NCBI GenBank assembly: GCA_014727915.1
Contig: WJMO01000013.1
Coordinates: forward strand, 1-33,167
DNA from: Candidatus Altiarchaeales archaeon
Lineage (GTDB): Archaea > Altiarchaeota > Altiarchaeia > IMC4 > SCGC-AAA252-I15
Length of the DNA: 33,167 nt
Direction: 5' to 3'
Positions 15,083 through 21,142 of the stretch are shown here, one piece after another. Position 1 is the first letter of the stretch. Each line of letters begins with the position of its first letter. The position numbers and the translations under genes are program-made. A model generated the notes under the pieces. It did no database searches and was not told the origin of the DNA. It saw only the letters and a list, made by a program, of their open reading frames with translations.

Positions 15083-16480
15083 TCATGTCCTTTCAGCCAC
15101 TGTCGTCCCGTCCTTCCTGTCAACAACCCGTATGCCCCTCTCCAGCAGCAGGTCCCTTATCCTGTCAGCTTCAACATAGTTCTTCTCCCTTCGATGCCTG
15201 TTCCTCTCCTCCATTAGATATCTCTCATCATCTTTTAGTGTGACTGTGTCGTATTCCACGTCCAACCCTGTAACAGACATCAGCTCGTCGAATATGCGGA
15301 TGGAATTTTCGATGGACTTCCTGGACTGGCCTCCACCTTCCAAGAGCGTGTTTATGTCCCGCAAGGTTTCGAACACCGCTGCCATCGCCTGTGGCGTGTT
15401 GAAATCATTGTCCATGTGGCTGATGAAATTCTCTCTCAGCTCCTCCGACATCTTTCCCGCGCTGTTGCCTCCGTCCTCGCCGGCGTCATCCAGATTCTCC
15501 CCCAATTTTTTCCTGTAGTTCCTGAGCCTCGCCACTGCCTGCTCCGCGCTCGCAATGTTGTCTTCGCTGTAGTCGACGGGGCTACGGTAGTGCGTCTGCA
15601 ATATGAACAGCCTGAGCGCGTCCCTGCTGTGGAACTTGAGGAATTCCCTGACTGGGAGTATGTTGCCGAGGCTCTTGCTCATCTTCTCCCCGGAGGACTG
15701 GAGGAACCCGGTGTGCAGCCAGTACCTGACAAAGGGTTTTCCACCCGTCAACGACTCGCTCTGGGCTATCTCGTTCTCGTGGTGTGGGAATATGAGGTCC
15801 AACGCCCCGCCGTGGATGTCTATCCTGTCACCCAGGCACTTCCTAGACATGGCCGAGCATTCGATGTGCCAACCCGGACGACCCCGCCCCCAGGGACTTT
15901 CAAAACCGGGTTCATCCTCTCCCACGCTCTTCCACAGTGCGAAGTCCACCGGCGACCTCTTACCCGGGTCGTGTTCTATCCTATGCTCCACCAGCTGCTC
16001 TACATCCTGGTTGGACAGCCTCCCATACTCTGGATGCGATTCCACGCTGAAGTAGACGTCTCCCCCAACCTCATAGGCGCAGCCCTTCCCCACCAATGTC
16101 TCCACCGCCCCAATGATCTCCTCGATGTTCTCCGATACCCTGGGGTAGTCGTCCGCCTCCAATAGCCCCAGCTCACGCCGGTCCTCGGCTGCCCTGTCCG
16201 CGTACATGCTCGCCAGCTCCAGCGGGTCAACCCCTCTCTCGCCTGCCCTCCGGATTATCTTGTCATCCACGTCCGTTATGTTCTGCACATGGGACAACTC
16301 ATACCCCCTGTACTTGAGGTACCTGAATATGACGTCGAAGGCGAGGTAGGTTCTCGCATGCCCTATGTGCATGTCGTCGTAGACGGTCAGCCCGCACACG
16401 TACGCCCTAACCCTACCCTCCTCTAACGGCGTGAACGCCTCCAACTCCCGGGTCAACGTGTTGTAAACCTTCAAGGCCAT
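15083..16480 (-). CDS. cysS: Cysteine--tRNA ligase
   Basis: YVCGLTVYD, HIGH, NITDVDDKII, DFALWK, GRPGWHIEC, DLIFPHHENE and KMSKS motifs. Confidence 0.98.
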   Translation of the reverse strand: MALKVYNTLTRELEAFTPLEEGRVRAYVCGLTVYDDMHIGHARTYLAFDVIFRYLKYRGYELSHVQNITDVDDKIIRRAGERGVDPLELASMYADRAAEDRRELGLLEADDYPRVSENIEEIIGAVETLVGKGCAYEVGGDVYFSVESHPEYGRLSNQDVEQLVEHRIEHDPGKRSPVDFALWKSVGEDEPGFESPWGRGRPGWHIECSAMSRKCLGDRIDIHGGALDLIFPHHENEIAQSESLTGGKPFVRYWLHTGFLQSSGEKMSKSLGNILPVREFLKFHSRDALRLFILQTHYRSPVDYSEDNIASAEQAVARLRNYRKKLGENLDDAGEDGGNSAGKMSEELRENFISHMDNDFNTPQAMAAVFETLRDINTLLEGGGQSRKSIENSIRIFDELMSVTGLDVEYDTVTLKDDERYLMEERNRHRREKNYVEADRIRDLLLERGIRVVDRKDGTTVAERT

Positions 16481-16489
16481 GTTATCTTT

Positions 16490-16563
16490 AGCGAGGGGAG
16501 GGATTCGAACCCTCGAATAACAGCTTTGCAGGCCGCCCCATTAAACCGCTCTGGCACCCTCGC
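16490..16563 (-). tRNA. tRNA-Cys(GCA), intronless, CCA not encoded
   Basis: Acceptor stem GCGAGGG/CCCTCGC, discriminator U73, anticodon arm GCGGC-CTGCAAA-GCTGT, T arm GAGGG-TTCGAAT-CCCTC. Confidence 0.95.
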
Positions 16564-16571
16564 ATAATCTT

Positions 16572-17156
16572 TCATATCATCCACTCCGGCTCCTTGCTGC
16601 ATGCTTCACAGGGGTCTTTGAGCCGCTGGTAGCATCCCTCCATTATCCTCAACCGTCCCTTGGGGCACACTACAGTCGAGTCCTCTGGTATGTCGTCGAC
16701 TATGACCGCCAGCGCCCCAACTTTGGAGTTCTTCTTCACCGTCACAGGACCGAGTATGGTAGCTCCCACACCCACTGTGACGTTGTCCTCTAATGTCGGG
16801 TGTCTTTTCTCCCCTTTCCTGTCCCTCCACCACCCATGACCTCCCAGTGTCACCCCATGGTATAGCATCACGTTGTCGCCTATCTCGGCAGTCTCCCCTA
16901 TCACCACCCCGGTGGCGTGGTCTATGAAGAATCCCTTGCCTATCCTGGCGGCCGGGTGGATTTCCGCCCCCGTGAGGAACCGGCCGAAGTATGATATCGC
17001 CCTGGGTACCACCGGCACACCCATGCTGTGGAGGCCGTGGGCTATCCTGTATAGTAGGATGGCCTGGACCCCTGGGTAAAGCAAGACTTCAACGTAGCCT
17101 AGCCCGCCCTTCAATGCCGGGTCCTTCTCATATGCGGCTTTGACCGTGTCAAGCAT
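16572..17156 (-). CDS. cysE: Serine O-acetyltransferase
   Basis: [44 protein letters not shown] and KRHPTL motifs; GAGGAGG SD before ATG 17156; C-terminal Ile. Confidence 0.95.
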
Positions 17157-18075
17157 GTTCCCTCCTCTCATACAATGGTGTAGACAGGTATCTTTCCCCG
17201 GTGTCCGGGAGTATCACCACCACCCTCTTGCCCCTGCCGAGTTTCCCAGCCACTTGCAGTGCGGCCCAGGTGTTGGCCCCGGATGATATGCCCACGAGCA
17301 GCCCCTCCTCCGATGCCAGTCTTTCGCTTGTGTTGAAGGCGTCTTCGTTCTTCACCTTGATGATCTCGTCTATCAGGCCAACGTCGAGTATGTCCGGCTT
17401 GAACCCTGCTCCTATGCCCTGTATCTTATGGGCTCCTGGTTTTCCGCCTGAGAGCACGGGCGAATCCTCCGGCTCTACTGCGATGAACCTGGCCGTTGGG
17501 TGCTTCTCCTTCAGCGCCTGGGCGACTCCGGTTATGGTTCCGCCTGTGCCGACCCCCGCGATGAACGCGTCGAATTCCCCGATTTCATCTTCCAGTTCCC
17601 TGGCGGTGGTTTCCCTGTGGGCTTTCACGTTGGCGTTGTTCTTGAACTGCTGGGGTATGAACACGTGGGGGTCTTCCCCGCCGAGTTCCTCCGCCTTATC
17701 GACCGCGCCCTTCATGCCCTTCGCGCCTTCGGTTAGCACGAGCTCCGCGCCGTAGGCTTTCAGTATCTTCCTCCGTTCCATGCTCATCGTGTCTGGCATG
17801 GTTAGCTTAAGACTGTAGCCTTTCACAGCCGAGACCATTGCCAGCCCGATCCCGGTGTTGCCGGATGTGGGTTCCACGATGATGCTGTCCTCTTTCAGCA
17901 CTCCCTCTCTCTCGGCCTCTTCTATCATGTAAAGTGCTATCCTGTCCTTGACAGAGGAGCCGGGGTTGAAGTATTCTATCTTGGCTATGACTTCCGCGTC
18001 TTCCGGTCCTGTCATATTGTTCAAACGCACGTGCGGCGTTTTTCCGATGGTTTGTGTTATGTTGTCGTATATCAT
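17149..18075 (-). CDS. cysK: Cysteine synthase A (O-acetylserine sulfhydrylase)
   Basis: [14 protein letters not shown] (PLP Lys), [24 protein letters not shown] and DTGERYLST motifs; ATG 18075 follows a GAGGTGA SD. Confidence 0.97.
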
Positions 18076-18129
18076 GAATATCACCTCATATCTTTTTTTT
18101 TTGGTTTTTAGGGATAGGATAAGTGGAAA

Positions 18130-18147
18130 GTAGGGACTAACCCCTAC
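18130..18147 (-). terminator. Candidate attenuator hairpin overlapping the leader ORF stop codon
   Basis: GUAGGG-G-UUAG-U-CCCUAC (6 bp plus a G.U pair, 4-nt loop), followed by the pyrimidine tract UUUCCACUUAUCCUAUCCC. Confidence 0.55.
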
Positions 18148-18193
18148 AGCAGCAACAGCGACAGTCGCCGGACCTAGGATGAAAACCATTCAT
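18137..18193 (-). CDS. Poly-cysteine leader peptide [18 protein letters not shown] upstream of cysK
   Basis: ATG AAT GGT TTT CAT CCT AGG TCC GGC GAC TGT CGC TGT TGC TGC TGT AGG GGT TAG; 5 Cys in 6 codons; ends 61 nt before the cysK ATG. Confidence 0.8.
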
Positions 18194-18195
18194 TT

Positions 18196-18209
18196 TTAAC
18201 AATTGTTAA
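18196..18209. promoter_or_regulatory. Operator-like palindrome TTAAC-AATT-GTTAA at the cys leader promoter
   Basis: Perfect 14-bp palindrome between a minus-strand TTTTTATA (18227-18234) and the leader ATG. Confidence 0.7.
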
Positions 18210-18354
18210 GTATAAGGCGTGGCTCATATAAAAACATGGCAGTTCCCGACAGGTCCCAATAAAACAAAAATAATATATAATATATAAAATTTTTCTTAAA
18301 TTATTTAAAAAAAATGCTACTGTCCTCTCTGTTCTGCCTTTGCTGCTTTTATAC

Positions 18355-18367
18355 TTAACGGCGTTAA
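18355..18367. promoter_or_regulatory. Operator-like palindrome TTAAC-GGC-GTTAA at the regulator promoter
   Basis: Directly after TTTTATA (18347-18353) and 8 nt before ATG 18376. Confidence 0.6.
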
Positions 18368-18375
18368 TCTCTACT

Positions 18376-18675
18376 ATGAAGCTGCCGTGCGAGACTGCAT
18401 TGTGGTATGTGCTCCCCCAGATACGGGCCGACCTGAGCCGCGCCCTCGTCAAGGAGGGCATGAGCCAGAAGGAAGTCGCGGACGTGCTGGGCATAACCCC
18501 CGCCGCAGTATCACAGTACATCCATAAGAAGCGCGGGGGCAAGATCAAGAGGACCAAGGAGTACAATGATCTGGTCAGGGATTCGGCCAAGAAGATACTC
18601 AAGTCAAAGGACGATGTTGCGGTGAGGGGGATAATCTGCAGGTGCTGCGCCGTCGGCCAGAAGTCAATGGACTGA
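18376..18675 (+). CDS. Archaeal HTH transcriptional regulator (COG2522-like, without ThiN domain)
   Basis: MKLPCE...YVLP.IRA.L...L...GMSQ.EVA..LGITPAAVSQY...KRG; C-terminal ICRCC; apparently leaderless. Confidence 0.88.
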   Translation: MKLPCETALWYVLPQIRADLSRALVKEGMSQKEVADVLGITPAAVSQYIHKKRGGKIKRTKEYNDLVRDSAKKILKSKDDVAVRGIICRCCAVGQKSMD

Positions 18676-18678
18676 ACC

Positions 18679-19815
18679 TTAACTGCCGTACTCCCTTTCT
18701 TCGCGTTCTATGAAGCCAACCAGCACGTTCCCCAACGTGTTGTTGTATACTAGGAAGGCGTCGTGGCCGTAGGGCAGGTCCAGCTTCCTGTATGTGGTGG
18801 GCGCCCCCGCCTCCGCCAGGCCCTCGTATATCTCCTCGACCTGCTCTGGAGGATACAGCCAGTCCGAGGTGAATGATACGAGCAGGAACCTGGACTTAAC
18901 GTCTTTGAACGCGTCTCTCAAACTCTTTGCCCCTCCTTCTGTGAGGTCGAACTGGTCGATGGCGTGGGTTATGTACAGGTAGCTGTTGGCGTCGAACCGC
19001 CTTACGAAGCTGTTGCCCTTGTACTGCAGGTAGCTTTGTATCTCGAACTCAACGCCGAACTTCTTCCTCGGCTTCTCGTTCTTCCGGTTCCTGTTGAACT
19101 TCCTCTCCAGCGTGTCCTGGCTCAGGTATGTTATGTGCCCCACCTGCCTTGCCAATGCCAGCCCGTCCGCCGGCCTGGATGAACCATAGTAGTCGCCTCC
19201 CTTCCACCGGGGGTCCTTTTGTATGGCCTGCCTTCCGATCTCATGGAATGCTATGCCCATGGGGTACTGTTTGGCTGCCGTGGCTATCGCGATCACCGAA
19301 TGCACGTATCCGGGGTATTCCAGACTCCACTGTAGCGCCTGCATGCCTCCTAGGCTACCCCCCGCCACCGCGAACAGCTTCTTAACTCCCAGGTGGTCGA
19401 GCAGCTTCCTCTGGGCTCTCACCATGTCCCTCACCGTCACAATTGGGAAGTCCAGGCCGTATGGTCTTCCGGTCTCCGGGTTTGTCGAGGAGGGTCCTGT
19501 GGAGCCCTTGCAGCCTCCGACCACGTTGGAGCAGACTATGAAGTACTTGCGCGTGTCGAAGGTCTTGCCCGGCCCCACTGCCACGTCATACCACCCGTGC
19601 TTCCTGCTGTTACGCCTGTGCTTTCCCGCTGCGTGGGCGTCGCCGCTCAGCGAGTGACATATGAGTATCGCGTTCGTGCCTTCTTTGTTGAGACCGCCGT
19701 ATGTTTCATAGGCTATGCGGACGTCCTCCAGTTTTTCGCCGCTTTCCAACTCTAATACGCCCAAGTCGTAGTGTCTGGCCTTCACGACCCCCATTGAACC
19801 ATCTTTCTTCGCCAA
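18679..19815 (-). CDS. metX: Homoserine O-acetyltransferase
   Basis: [29 protein letters not shown] nucleophile elbow, RFDANSY, DWLYP and GHDAFL motifs. Confidence 0.95.
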
Positions 19816-19820
19816 TTACC

Positions 19821-21113
19821 TCACACTCCCTTCAACGCTTGGTTGATGTCTTCTATGATGTCGTCGATGTTCTCCAACCCTGTGGAAAGCCTTACCAGCC
19901 CTGGTGTTATCCCCCCGCTCAACTGCTGTTTCTCTGTCAGCTGGCTGTGTGTGGTGCTGGCAGGGTGTATCGCCAGGCTCTTCGCGTCCCCCACGTTAGC
20001 GAGGTGGGAGAAAAGTTCCAGTGATTCTATGAACTTCCTGCCTGATTTGGCTCCGCCTTTGACCTCGAATATGGCCATCGCCCCGTATCCGTTCTTCAGG
20101 TACTTTTTCGCGTTGTCGTGGGTTGGGTGCGTGTCCAATCCGGGGTACCTGACCCACTCGACGTTTTCATGCGCTTCAAGGTGTTCCGCGACCGCTTGAG
20201 CGTTCCTACAGTGCCTTTCCATCCTAACGGGGAGGGTCTCAAGCCCCTGGAGGAAGATCCATGAGTTGTCCGGGGATATGCACCCTCCCAGGTTCCTCAA
20301 TGGCACGAGCCTCATCCTCAGTATGTAGGCCAGTGGTGTCAGTTCGCCCAGGTCGTGGGCGTATCTTATCCTATGGTAGCTTTCGTCTGGTTCCGTTAGC
20401 AGCGGGTGCTTGTCCGATTTGCTCCAGTCGAAGTTTCCCGAGTCGACAACTGCCCCTCCTATGCCTGTGCCGTGTCCGCCTATCCACTTTGTCAGCGAGT
20501 GTGCTACTATCTCGGCTCCGTGTTCGATGGGCCTTAGCAGGTAGGGTGTCGTGAACGTGCTGTCGACTATGTAGGGTATGCCGTTGTCGTGGGCGATCTC
20601 GGATATTGCCTTGAAGTCGGGCACGTTCAATACGGGGTTCCCGATGGTCTCGGAGTATAGTGCTTTCGTGTTTTCTGTTATTGCCTTACTGTAGTTGTCT
20701 GGGTCTGTGGGGTCTGCGAAGTTGACTTTGATGCCGAGGTCTGGCAGTATGTTGTTGAACTGGGTGTAGGTTCCCCCGTACAGGTCGTTCGCGGACACGA
20801 TCTCGTCCCCGACTCTCGCAAGGTTTATTATGCTGTAGAATATGGCGGTGGTGCCTGATGACAGGGCGAGTCCTCCGACTCCTCCTTCAAGGGAGGCCAG
20901 CCTCTTCTCGAGCACGTCCGTTGTGGGGTTCATCAGCCTCGTGTATATGTTTCCCAGTTCCTTCAACCCGAACAGGTTCGCGGCGTGTTCAGTGTCTTTG
21001 AAGATGTAACTGCTTGTCCTGTACAATGGAACCGCCCTTGACAGTGTCGTCGGGTCAGGCTCCTGCCCTGCGTGGAGCGCTTTTGTCTCCAGTCTTTCTC
21101 CTTCTGACTTCAT
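19821..21113 (-). CDS. metY: O-acetylhomoserine sulfhydrylase (aminocarboxypropyltransferase)
   Basis: [35 protein letters not shown] (PLP Lys) and [20 protein letters not shown] motifs. Confidence 0.96.
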
Positions 21114-21128
21114 CTTAACACCAACTTC

Positions 21129-21142
21129 TTAACAATCGTTAA
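21129..21142. promoter_or_regulatory. Operator-like palindrome TTAAC-AATC-GTTAA at the metY-metX promoter
   Basis: 13/14 identical to the cys site; lies between a minus-strand TTTAAAA (21148-21154) and the metY ATG. Confidence 0.7.

Follow-up and report, generated by a model that had tools for sequence, protein, structure and literature searches.

The 33,167-nt stretch of DNA analysed here (the window) carries on its minus strand a group of cysteine genes in the order cysK-cysE-tRNA-Cys-cysS, an order given in the original prediction and borne out by family matches and a tRNA call (Table 1); the cysE product also matches TIGR01172, at 194.6 bits and just below the cut-off. The genome is archaeal, as it encodes TBP and an FttA/aCPSF1 orthologue (917.9 bits, over the cut-off). 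Close to this biosynthetic operon, 61 nt upstream of cysK and in the same orientation, lies a small open reading frame (ORF) that begins with an ATG at 18193, comprises 18 sense codons and ends in TAG at 18139-18137. Five of its codons specify Cys (TGT, TGT, TGC, TGC and TGT, in this order, at 18163-18146, with CGC after the first), and since TGT and TGC are mixed the run is no simple repeat. Re-reading the sequence gave the ORF and its Cys codons as originally claimed, including the lack of a Shine-Dalgarno (SD) sequence of its own, as none precedes the leader ATG in the window.

Table 1. Features of the leader, its promoter and the neighbouring genes in the window.
Feature	Position	Strand	Evidence or remark
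cysS (cysteine--tRNA ligase)	15083..16480	-	TIGR00435, 502.7 bits
tRNA-Cys(GCA)	16490..16563	-	8-9 nt from both neighbour genes
cysE-type serine O-acetyltransferase	16572..17171	-	NF041874, 190 bits, over cut-off; start overlaps cysK end
cysK (O-acetylserine sulfhydrylase)	17149..18075	-	TIGR01139, 439 bits, over cut-off
cysK Shine-Dalgarno, GAGGTGA	18081..18087	-	genome-wide GGTG peak 9-12 nt before start codons
G-poor C/U/A spacer	18088..18129	-	ends in A10 run (18093-18102); without oligo-T run and GGAC box
Hairpin GUAGGG / CCCUAC, stop UAG inside 6-nt loop	18130..18147	-	MFE and centroid folds
Leader ORF, 18 codons + TAG	18137..18193	-	read from sequence; kept as ORF in relatives
Block of 5 Cys codons (TGT CGC TGT TGC TGC TGT)	18146..18163	-	last TGT is the invariant anchor codon
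Palindromic operator TTAACAATTGTTAA	18196..18209	.	over predicted transcription start, 2 nt before leader ATG
TATA-like box TTTTTATA of leader/cysK promoter	18227..18234	-	sequence; relatives' TTTAWA 16-17 nt before palindrome
Operator variant TTAAC-N3-GTTAA	18355..18367	.	between regulator's TATA box and ATG
Divergent small HTH_3 (Xre-type) regulator gene, 99 aa	18376..18675	+	Pfam HTH_3, E = 1.5e-6
O-acetylhomoserine sulfhydrylase-metX (metY-metX) operon	19821-21113 and 18679-19815	-	promoter carries second operator
Second full operator TTAACAATCGTTAA (+ strand reading)	21129..21142	.	between TATA-like box and metY-metX operon

The TATA-like box predicted upstream of the ORF is present, and two relatives without a leader (L014 and L016) carry the same TATA box and operator immediately ahead of cysK itself; a single promoter therefore serves both leader and cysK. 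The main TATA box stands 30-39 nt before the leader ATG among the leaders compared below. In the window the end of the TTTAWA lies 33 nt from this ATG, as against a genome-wide TTTAWA-to-ATG peak at 21-29 nt, taken as the leaderless class, and the predicted leader 5' UTR is therefore about 8-10 nt. The ORF is thus probably not strictly leaderless, and the likeness to leaderless ORFs of the actinobacterial type drawn in the original prediction may not hold in this respect.

That prediction had also overlooked a second layer of control, namely a palindromic operator over the promoter and a divergent HTH regulator gene. The motif TTAAC-N4-GTTAA occurs at four sites in the 1.8-Mb genome, two of which are in the window, at the cysK-leader and metY promoters, and the form TTAACAATNGTTAA stands ahead of the ATG in 13 of 16 leaders. 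The variant with a 3-nt spacer suggests that the regulator controls its own gene, and a similar site is found at the same place in L003. The divergent regulator gene is visible upstream in many relatives and was checked with Pfam in one of them (L110); for the window's HTH_3 regulator, no curated NCBIfam family scored over its cut-off and no solved close relative of use was found. The HTH_3 protein probably represses the cys and met promoters, and the putative TTAAC-N4-GTTAA operator defines a small sulfur-amino-acid regulon in which cysK and metY-metX would be under this uncharacterised regulator.

Taken alone, the window would not make a case for the leader. Its hairpin has a z of -1.0 and is matched in folding by 33 of 200 shuffles, the whole leader has a z of -0.63, and 9 of the 22,386 ATG-ORFs of 10-40 codons in this genome are as rich in Cys (at least 4 Cys within the last 9 residues); the shuffle-like folding and these other Cys-rich small ORFs mean that the window by itself is not beyond chance. 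From comparison of the sequences, it is conservation in relatives, not the window alone, that makes the leader a real feature.

The relatives belong to an Altiarchaeota-like order, and the leader is conserved across three families of this order and in metagenome contigs. Of 18 upstream regions drawn from 41 related genomes, 16 have the module ahead of cysK or of a PALP+CBS paralogue, and it is also found in 6 of 73 metagenome matches to a promoter-anchored pattern that used TTTAWA before the palindrome. When the 61 genomes of the class were all scanned with a covariance model, 12 matches reached 29 bits or more; every one of them was at a leader, and two were new. The module is carried by the 16 cysK upstream regions, the six metagenome contigs and these two further genome matches. 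The counts given below refer to 23 complete leaders, six of them chosen by eye among the pattern matches. Left outside the counts were L015 (cysK cut, without upstream DNA), L018 (29% identity, not cysK), L190 (leader complete, with the contig stopping before cysK) and L021 and L022, which are on the same contigs as L005 and L008.

The order of the module is a TATA box, the palindromic operator, the ATG, a variable N-terminus, Cys codons, a hairpin opened by UGU, and a stop codon in the hairpin loop. The distance from the ATG to the anchor UGU is a multiple of three in all 23 leaders, over eight distinct lengths, and the leader frame has no in-frame stop, whereas the two remaining frames contain 17 and 12. 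The leaders end in TAA (11), TGA (7) or TAG (5) at a common loop position. Cys makes up 74 of 508 residues (14.6%), as compared with 1.64% for the genome's long ORFs, and all of these Cys lie within the last 12 residues, with one at position -3 in 22 of the 23. The anchor Cys codon is invariably TGT although TGC is preferred, which points to a constraint at the RNA level, and UGU accounts for 59% of the non-anchor Cys codons, its share in long ORFs nearby being 32%. Neither the sequence nor the length of the N-terminus is constrained; in close pairs the N-terminal codons drift and the stretch from hairpin to GGAC is identical. The conserved end reads C-x-C-R-[LV], the Arg found after the -3 Cys in most leaders being spelled AGG, CGG or AGA, and divergent ends are CRG in the window, CCL in L004, CSQ in L006 and CRLC in L013.

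The prediction that relatives would carry Cys ORFs upstream of cysK is therefore confirmed in that a Cys-rich leader is conserved in frame; conservation does not extend to the poly-Cys run, as leaders have from 1 to 6 Cys codons and five of the 23 have a single one, which would make a weak starvation sensor. In the aligned leaders the invariant core is the UGU, the hairpin and the stop, not the poly-Cys run. In the window the cysK frame is open upstream to 18189, but entry into it by a +1 frameshift from the leader and an N-terminal extension of CysK were both rejected, because the frame relation of leader and cysK differs among relatives: the distance between the two ATGs, modulo 3, is 1, 2, 2, 0 and 2 for L001-L005. 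The open extension of the cysK frame in relatives gives 306 to 346 codons. A crude scan of this genome for other amino-acid leader ORFs gave 75 candidate rows, and none of them stood before a cognate biosynthetic gene, the downstream genes being judged by eye.

The hairpin that had been proposed over the stop codon is present in both the MFE and the centroid folds, GUAGGG at 18147-18142 pairing with CCCUAC at 18135-18130. The invariant last UGU is the first codon of its 5' arm, and the stop lies within the apical loop in 22 of 23 leaders. RNAalifold gave no pairs on the MAFFT alignment of the leaders, in which the 3' arms are out of register, and for this reason we used an arm-swap test and a model-fitted alignment. 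Native arm pairs have a mean of -11.0 kcal/mol, versus -8.4 when swapped, and none of 20,000 permutations was as good, a figure that overstates independence because the relatives are kin. In the model-fitted alignment, which leans towards structure, 82.7% of cells pair, as compared with 69.2% in shuffles (none of 500 reached the native value, with the same overstatement of independence); pair 11-20 is CG in seven leaders and GC in seven, and pair 8-23 is AU in eight and CG in two, so that the 3' arm compensates for the change between AGG and CGG. The window's own hairpin was missed by covariance models R1 and R2, and its loop register differs. Seven R2 matches at or below 23.3 bits were not leader-like, most of them by eye inside coding sequence. 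Across the whole window, only tRNA scored above the gathering score of Rfam, and at 17950-18450 the best Rfam matches (E of at least 0.56) were to unrelated eukaryotic families, with no T-box among them. Only one hairpin is conserved, RNAalifold on the leader alignment and inspection of the leaders giving no further pairs and no mutually exclusive antiterminator and terminator hairpins, and alternative hairpins of the trp type were rejected on these grounds. No pairing partner for the hairpin 3' arm or for GGAC was found in the leaders.

Between the leader and cysK, 18 of the 23 leaders have a run of at least five T, without a hairpin (shuffle mean 3.1, maximum 9), and 17 of 23 spacers contain GGAC (shuffle mean 1.2). 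The spacers are 11.7% G, and in most leaders that have an oligo-T run this run ends 27-41 nt before the cysK ATG. No T5 run is found in the window, L003, L009, L013 and L110; the 61 nt from the window's leader stop to the cysK ATG contain A24, C15, G5 and T17, the longest T run being 3 and the longest A run 10. In this genome T5+ runs occur in 21% of 558 intergenic 3' flanks, versus 15% for A5+, and oligo-T is thus no sharp terminator mark.

It had been suggested that CACUUAU in the C/U tract could pair with the region of the cysK SD and that occlusion of the SD might be the off state. The pairing is present in the MFE fold of the window and absent from the centroid fold. Folding with and without a ribosome footprint left the mean predicted SD accessibility of the leaders almost unchanged, a simulated stalled ribosome raising it from 0.27 to 0.29-0.30; shuffling the spacers made no difference to how well the SD is sequestered (p = 0.39), and the predicted pairing of the SD with the Cys tract and 5' arm has a mean of 0.04. 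In the window alone a stall at the last Cys changes the predicted accessibility from 0.28 to 0.42, and 85% of shuffles have a less open SD than the native sequence. Neither the C/U tract nor the Cys tract is thus accepted as occluding the SD by a conserved mechanism.

In our view, the 18-codon ORF is a translated leader that senses Cys-tRNA and is layered on the repressor, as in the E. coli trp operon, a reading to which we assign a probability of about 60%. We infer that leader and cysK are co-transcribed from a start about 25 nt past the TATA box, within the palindromic operator of the divergent HTH_3 regulator, giving an SD-less 5' end of about 8-10 nt, and that a ribosome would read the variable N-terminus and then the Cys codons, five here and 1-6 in relatives. 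Decoding of UGU by the GCA anticodon needs wobble. With scarce Cys-tRNA(Cys) the ribosome would stall at the Cys codons and occupy the 5' arm, so that the hairpin would be unfolded (ON), and, with the ribosome remaining on the leader, transcription and translation would run on into cysK. With ample Cys-tRNA(Cys) it would complete the leader and depart, the hairpin would fold (OFF) and the G-poor spacer RNA would be left bare, the transcript being terminated or cleaved upstream of cysK; in most relatives the end would fall at the GGAC box and oligo-U tract, probably via FttA/aCPSF1.

The conserved ORF, the covarying hairpin and the oligo-T run of most leaders fit a translation-coupled attenuator, as originally predicted. 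The window has neither the oligo-T run nor GGAC and does not bear this prediction out in full, and the OFF device proposed for its relatives is therefore absent here. More tentatively, these parts may form an archaeal attenuator of a new build, a possibility that we hold doubtful, in which the hairpin that swallows the stop is itself the OFF state and a starved ribosome blocks its folding, whereas the folded hairpin and GGAC would be read by a trans factor (FttA/aCPSF1 with Spt5, or a nuclease) and the transcript would end, independently of any hairpin, at the oligo-U tract. Termination in archaea is not known to us to be affected by a hairpin upstream or by a ribosome that trails the polymerase by 40-55 nt. 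According to two reports, oligo-T suffices for termination by archaeal RNA polymerase, with no hairpin needed, and U-tracts act together with aCPSF1 (PMC13675443, PMC13681488).

The HTH_3 protein and its operators could also do all of the regulating, the small ORF being a separate short gene whose transcript ends at the oligo-T run and whose peptide, with its conserved end, acts in trans, with thiol or metal ligation and partnering of the regulator among its possible roles, and cysK being transcribed from an internal promoter. We regard this as unlikely. It agrees with the overlap of the operator with the predicted start and with the like sites at the regulator's own promoter (the 3-nt-spacer variant) and at that of metY, and the distance from the end of the oligo-T run to the cysK ATG resembles the TATA-to-leader-ATG spacing; TTTAWA, a possible internal promoter, is present in 3 of 23 spacers. 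The other 20 lack a TATA consensus, so that an internal cysK promoter at the oligo-T run was rejected in general and survives only as part of this explanation. Where the T5 run is missing, in the window and four relatives, leader and cysK must be one transcript, the relatives without a leader carry the same promoter directly on cysK, and a strong cysK SD is kept in nearly all 23 leaders, as expected of an internal cistron. The variable N-terminus and the five peptides with a single Cys are unlike a metal-binding peptide, and the unvarying TGT of the anchor likewise speaks against a function of the peptide in trans. That the leader ORF has no function at all and arose by chance between genes is scarcely credible: the window ORF and hairpin by themselves are statistically ordinary, and 4 of 72 unrelated cysK loci (from a CysK scan of genome contigs, mostly bacteria, with only two loci of this lineage) have a small ORF in which 10 residues include 3 Cys or more, but frame, Cys position, hairpin and stop position are conserved across the three families and the metagenome contigs, and the diverged N-termini of the relatives argue against recent copies of one sequence.

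Two further explanations keep the conserved core and read it differently. The hairpin and GGAC could be the functional unit, bound by a nuclease or another RNA-binding protein or touching tRNA-Cys in the manner of a T-box, with translation incidental; the stretch from hairpin to GGAC is the best conserved part in close pairs, GGAC is strongly enriched and has no pairing partner that we could find, and the UGY codons might in principle pair with the GCA anticodon. This is quite unlikely in our judgement, as a conserved frame, start and stop, with all three stop codons at one loop position, would be unexpected in an untranslated element; in addition, no Rfam family matches, T-box included, and GGAC is absent from the window. 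The conserved end and the hairpin might instead arrest the ribosome near the stop, the nascent peptide sensing cysteine, O-acetylserine or sulfide in the manner of TnaC or the fungal arginine attenuator peptide, and not tRNA charging. The sole universal coding feature is indeed the last three codons and the stop, with the -3 Cys and mostly an Arg next to it, and single-Cys leaders retain this end too. Yet the same nucleotides form the compensated 5' arm of the hairpin (pair 8-23), and RNA structure therefore explains the codon conservation without a role of the peptide; the motif is loose, as the four divergent ends show, and we know of no evidence for arrest peptides in Archaea. We consider this explanation very unlikely.

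Leader-peptide attenuation is a textbook outcome of coupled transcription and translation in bacteria, and the locus bears on whether Archaea use it. A full-text literature search, incomplete in coverage, returned no description of an amino-acid leader-peptide attenuator in an archaeon. Sensing of the Cys supply by a ribosome on a leader, so far shown only in bacteria and unreported in Archaea, probably takes place in this archaeon and its relatives. If the more tentative reading given above, with the hairpin as OFF state, is true, it would be the first translation-coupled attenuator in Archaea, built unlike the bacterial ones, and the loop would control, besides cysteine synthesis, CysRS and a gene for tRNA-Cys, which together make what the sensor measures. 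The candidate is compact (about 150 nt), conserved and defined in sequence, with clear mutational predictions for the ATG, the Cys codons, the stem, GGAC and the oligo-T run, and as the leader is portable to reporters in tractable archaea it could serve to test the gating of FttA-type termination by ribosomes.

Among known systems, the E. coli trp operon combines a TrpR operator with the trpL attenuator, in which a hairpin has the cognate codons in its 5' arm, the stop is near the loop and a U-run precedes the first gene. The locus described here resembles it in its two layers, a repressor site over the promoter and a leader ORF with cognate codons in a hairpin arm. In contrast to trp, it has neither a 2:3 antiterminator nor a 3:4 terminator hairpin, most relatives having an oligo-T run alone and the window none. 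T-box leaders of bacterial cysK, cysE and cysS genes exert control by tRNA-Cys charging in the 5' leader; the kinds of genes and the proposed control are the same here, but there is no T-box or other Rfam match, and a conserved ORF takes the place of the tRNA-binding RNA. TnaC senses free tryptophan through its nascent peptide and induces a catabolic operon, the held ribosome blocking Rho-dependent termination. Like tna, the leader would hold a ribosome within a few codons of its stop and is followed by a G-poor, C-rich, unstructured spacer, and a factor (FttA) is encoded in the genome; unlike tna, the proposed signal is starvation at Cys codons and the operon is biosynthetic. FttA-dependent termination is described as a mechanistic analogue of Rho-dependent termination (PMC13681488), and the tna operon is cited as an analogy for Cys leaders (PMC1262725).

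The closest likeness is to the mycobacterial polycysteine sORFs (Canestrari et al., 10.1101/834739) and the predicted actinobacterial Cys leaders (Seliverstov et al. 2005, PMC1262725). Actinobacterial cys and cbs operons have leaders with Cys codons near the stop and without terminator hairpins (PMC1262725; 10.1101/834739), and the mycobacterial Cys tract base-pairs with the downstream gene's SD, control being translational and not by termination (10.1101/834739). The archaeal leader shares with them a short first ORF without an SD and with Cys codons by the stop, a place upstream of cysteine-synthesis genes, cbs-type ones included, and the lack of a terminator/antiterminator hairpin pair; no sequence relationship to the actinobacterial leaders is implied. 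It differs from the mycobacterial sORFs in being archaeal, in having no SD pairing that we could find and in a start codon probably 8-10 nt from the 5' end, and from the actinobacterial leaders in its conserved element, which here is a local hairpin over the stop, followed by the GGAC box and the oligo-T run.

The features described in the original prediction are all present in the window: an 18-codon leader ORF, whose Cys codons mix TGT and TGC and whose ATG has no SD, a 6-bp hairpin with the stop codon inside its loop, a TTTTTATA box, and the SD GAGGTGA ahead of cysK. On their own, the leader and hairpin in the window do not exceed chance: the fold scores are z = -1.0 for the hairpin and z = -0.63 for the whole leader, and equally Cys-rich ends are found in 9 of the 22,386 small ATG-ORFs of the host genome (1.8 Mb, 13 contigs).

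Coordinates of the leader, the surrounding genes and the operator sites (positions in the window, except where another contig is named)
Feature	Coordinates	Strand	Location or remark
TTTTTATA box	18234-18227		
Leader ORF	18193-18137	minus	ATG 18193; TAG stop 18139-18137
Hairpin	18147-18130	minus	
A10 run	18093-18102		3′ end of spacer
cysK	17149-18075	minus	
cysE-type acetyltransferase	16572-17171	minus	
tRNA-Cys(GCA)	16490-16563	minus	
cysS	15083-16480	minus	
O-acetylhomoserine sulfhydrylase	19821-21113	minus	upstream of cysK
metX	18679-19815	minus	upstream of cysK
HTH_3 protein, 99 aa	18376-18675	plus	between metX and cysK
TTAAC-N4-GTTAA site	18196-18209		over predicted leader transcript start
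TTAAC-N4-GTTAA site	21129-21142		between TATA-like box and O-acetylhomoserine sulfhydrylase-metX operon
TTAAC-N4-GTTAA site	G000 (host genome) C5:80241-80254		other contig, before 288-aa membrane-associated HTH-like ORF
Operator variant, 3-nt spacer	18355-18367		between regulator's own TATA box and ATG

The cysK frame is open upstream as far as an ATG at 18189 (18076-18189, minus strand), and the resulting 346-aa ORF overlaps the leader, though in a different frame; an automatic gene caller could choose this start and thereby hide the leader. We rejected the extended frame, as neither the length of the extension nor its frame relation to the leader is conserved among relatives. At the other end of the operon (16470-16590, minus strand), tRNA-Cys lies 8 nt downstream of the cysE stop and 9 nt upstream of the ATG of cysS, which has no SD, and excision of the tRNA would make the cysS mRNA nearly leaderless. 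The host genome has a second tRNA-Cys(GCA) copy (C12:288354-288426), and the order cysK-cysE-tRNA-Cys was found in 5 of 17 scanned loci (L001, L002, L005, L011, L012).

Using CysK as query, we searched 41 related genomes, then every genome of the order (49) and of the class (61) in the collection, and obtained 18 readable upstream regions, leaving out L015 (no upstream DNA) and L018 (not cysK). A small ORF of 18-25 codons occupies the same place in 16 of the 18; in the two exceptions, L014 and L016, there is no leader, and the TATA box and palindrome of the other relatives stand immediately ahead of cysK. Run against the 61 genomes of the class, a covariance model built on the hairpin gave 12 matches of at least 29 bits, all at leaders and two of them new, and seven weaker matches unlike leaders, most of which fall within coding sequence by eye. 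Metagenome contigs were scanned for the promoter-operator-ATG pattern only, yielding 73 stretches, six with a leader-type ORF, followed by cysK in five cases and by a PALP+CBS gene in one; a leader upstream of a PALP+CBS gene is also found at L019 (genome G024). In total 24 leaders were found, and the counts below use the 23 that extend to the downstream gene. The genome bin G008 contains the leader region twice, in slightly differing versions (L009 and L190, on contigs C149 and C79), which could mean that the bin mixes strains or that the region is duplicated. At two cysK loci of Bacillota/Clostridia MAGs (L028, L062), small ORFs with 4 Cys within 10 residues lie 170-222 nt upstream of cysK, and might be bacterial Cys leaders or chance occurrences.

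An invariant UGU Cys codon (the anchor) lies a multiple of three nucleotides from the ATG in 23/23 leaders, over eight lengths from 45 to 66 nt; in-frame stops are absent from the interval, whereas the other two frames contain 17 and 12. Cys accounts for 74 of the 508 leader residues (14.6%), compared with 1.64% in long ORFs of the host genome; every leader Cys falls within the last 12 residues, position -3 is Cys in 22 of the 23, and the N-terminal residues of the leaders show no conservation. Since the number of Cys per leader ranges from 1 to 6, the window with its poly-Cys run represents one variant of a feature that differs among leaders: what is kept in relatives is the presence of Cys codons, not the run that had been expected. 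The anchor codon is TGT in every leader, and TGT makes up 59% of the remaining leader Cys codons; in long ORFs its share is 32% for neighbouring ones and 16% for those of the host genome. UGU is decoded through wobble by the single anticodon GCA. Nearly all leaders have a strong SD ahead of cysK. In our view, the ORF is very likely a conserved, translated Cys-codon leader.

The 5′ arm of the hairpin begins at the anchor or at the following codon, and the stop codon lies within the apical loop in 22/23 leaders, with all three stops in use (TAA 11, TGA 7, TAG 5). The two arms covary. Native 5′/3′ pairs have a mean of -11.0 kcal/mol versus -8.4 when swapped, with none of 20,000 permutations reaching the native value, and when 15 leaders are aligned by fitting to the model, pair 11-20 is CG in seven and GC in seven, pair 8-23 is AU in eight and CG in two, paired cells amount to 82.7% versus 69.2% in shuffles (0/500 as high), and sliding the partners lowers every pairing measure; the relatedness of the leaders, and the use of the structure in fitting the alignment, make these figures generous. 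A second conserved helix was sought in the leaders, and none was found.

The spacers between leader stop and cysK ATG (54-105 nt) are G-poor (11.7% G). GGAC is present in 17 of the 23 (shuffle mean 1.2, maximum 5), 14-29 nt past the leader stop in 16 of these 17, and a T5+ run in 18 (shuffle mean 3.1, maximum 9), in most leaders starting 39-54 nt past the stop and ending 27-41 nt before the cysK ATG. When close pairs are compared, conservation is highest over the segment that begins at the last Cys codon, includes the hairpin and ends at GGAC (identical across ~57 nt in L130 and L178), whereas the N-terminal codons have drifted apart. The 61-nt spacer of the window lacks a GGAC box, and its longest T run is 3 nt, so that the window appears to hold the sensor half of the module without the part most plausibly responsible for the OFF state in relatives; L003, from the same genus, keeps GGAC and has no T run. 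In the window, the spacer finishes with an A10 run immediately upstream of the cysK SD. Runs of at least 5 A are present in 17/23 spacers, and by inspection those of several relatives, such as L106, are complementary to the upstream oligo-T run.

The original prediction saw in these elements a Cys-sensing, ribosome-mediated attenuator, with an OFF state by termination or by SD occlusion. We assign the leader-sensor reading a probability of about 0.6, and find that the read-out is not SD occlusion. The predicted pairing of the SD to the Cys tract averages only 0.04 across leaders, a simulated ribosome at the first Cys, last Cys or stop takes SD accessibility from 0.27 to just 0.29-0.30, and sequestration of the SD by the spacer is 0.265 in native versus 0.258 in shuffled sequences (Wilcoxon p = 0.39). 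There remains a single hairpin, whose folding would be set by the presence or absence of a ribosome on the Cys codons; in most relatives the GGAC box and the oligo-T run lie after it. A ribosome that completes the leader and departs would let the hairpin fold and leave the RNA bare, and the transcript would be terminated or cut; a ribosome stalled at the Cys codons would be retained, keeping the hairpin open while the polymerase reads through. This is the model that we favour; the sign of the response and every output step are what we infer, and the specific hairpin-gated termination is tentative, with a fairly low probability. The host genome encodes both TBP and an FttA/aCPSF1 orthologue. 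According to PMC13675443 and PMC13681488, archaeal RNA polymerase needs no hairpin to terminate at oligo-T, termination becomes more effective with aCPSF1/FttA, which binds U-tracts, and FttA-dependent termination is described as mechanistically analogous to the Rho-dependent kind.

The leader promoter of the relatives has the layout TTTAWA, 16-17 nt, TTAACAATNGTTAA, 0-8 nt, ATG. Over the host genome, the interval separating the end of TTTAWA from the start codon has its peak at 21-29 nt, best read as a large leaderless class, whereas it is 33 nt for the leader ORF of the window and 30-39 nt in relatives by promoter geometry; the 5′ UTR, lacking an SD, is accordingly predicted to be some 6-14 nt long, and the leader mRNA would not be strictly leaderless. 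The palindrome TTAAC-N4-GTTAA has four sites in the host genome, the fourth of which looks like a chance occurrence. Judging from the placement of the sites, the operator family (N4 and its N3 variant) appears to link the HTH_3 regulator, the cysK leader promoter and the metY-metX promoter, in a repressor-type layout. In many relatives the regulator gene and the leader are divergently oriented (confirmed by Pfam in L110); a match of the 99-aa protein to curated families was sought, and none was found. On metagenome contigs, the TATA-N16/17-palindrome-ATG pattern stands directly before SufB-type Fe-S assembly genes (L121, L122, L127, L158; SUFBD_core Pfam confirmation covers L127 only), which may point to a wider sulfur/Fe-S regulon under this type of operator in other archaea. 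On an AT-rich metagenome contig (L165) the same pattern precedes a 30-residue ORF with 12 Cys in C-x-C / C-C-K repeats, which from its sequence looks like a metallothionein; a membrane-protein ORF follows immediately, and there is no hairpin-over-stop module and no cysK nearby.

Leaders of the Cys-codon kind are already known from bacteria, and the archaeal case is without a report in the literature searched, in which, at partial coverage, we found no amino-acid leader-peptide attenuator in Archaea. The E. coli trp operon has a repressor-plus-attenuator design, of which the putative repressor-type layout would make the present locus an analogue. In mycobacteria, according to 10.1101/834739, the Cys tract pairs with the SD of the next gene, a mechanism that does not apply to the archaeal leaders. 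For actinobacterial Cys leaders without terminator hairpins, Seliverstov et al. favour a Rho- and tna-like mechanism (PMC1262725), a view similar to the model that we favour for the archaeal leader.
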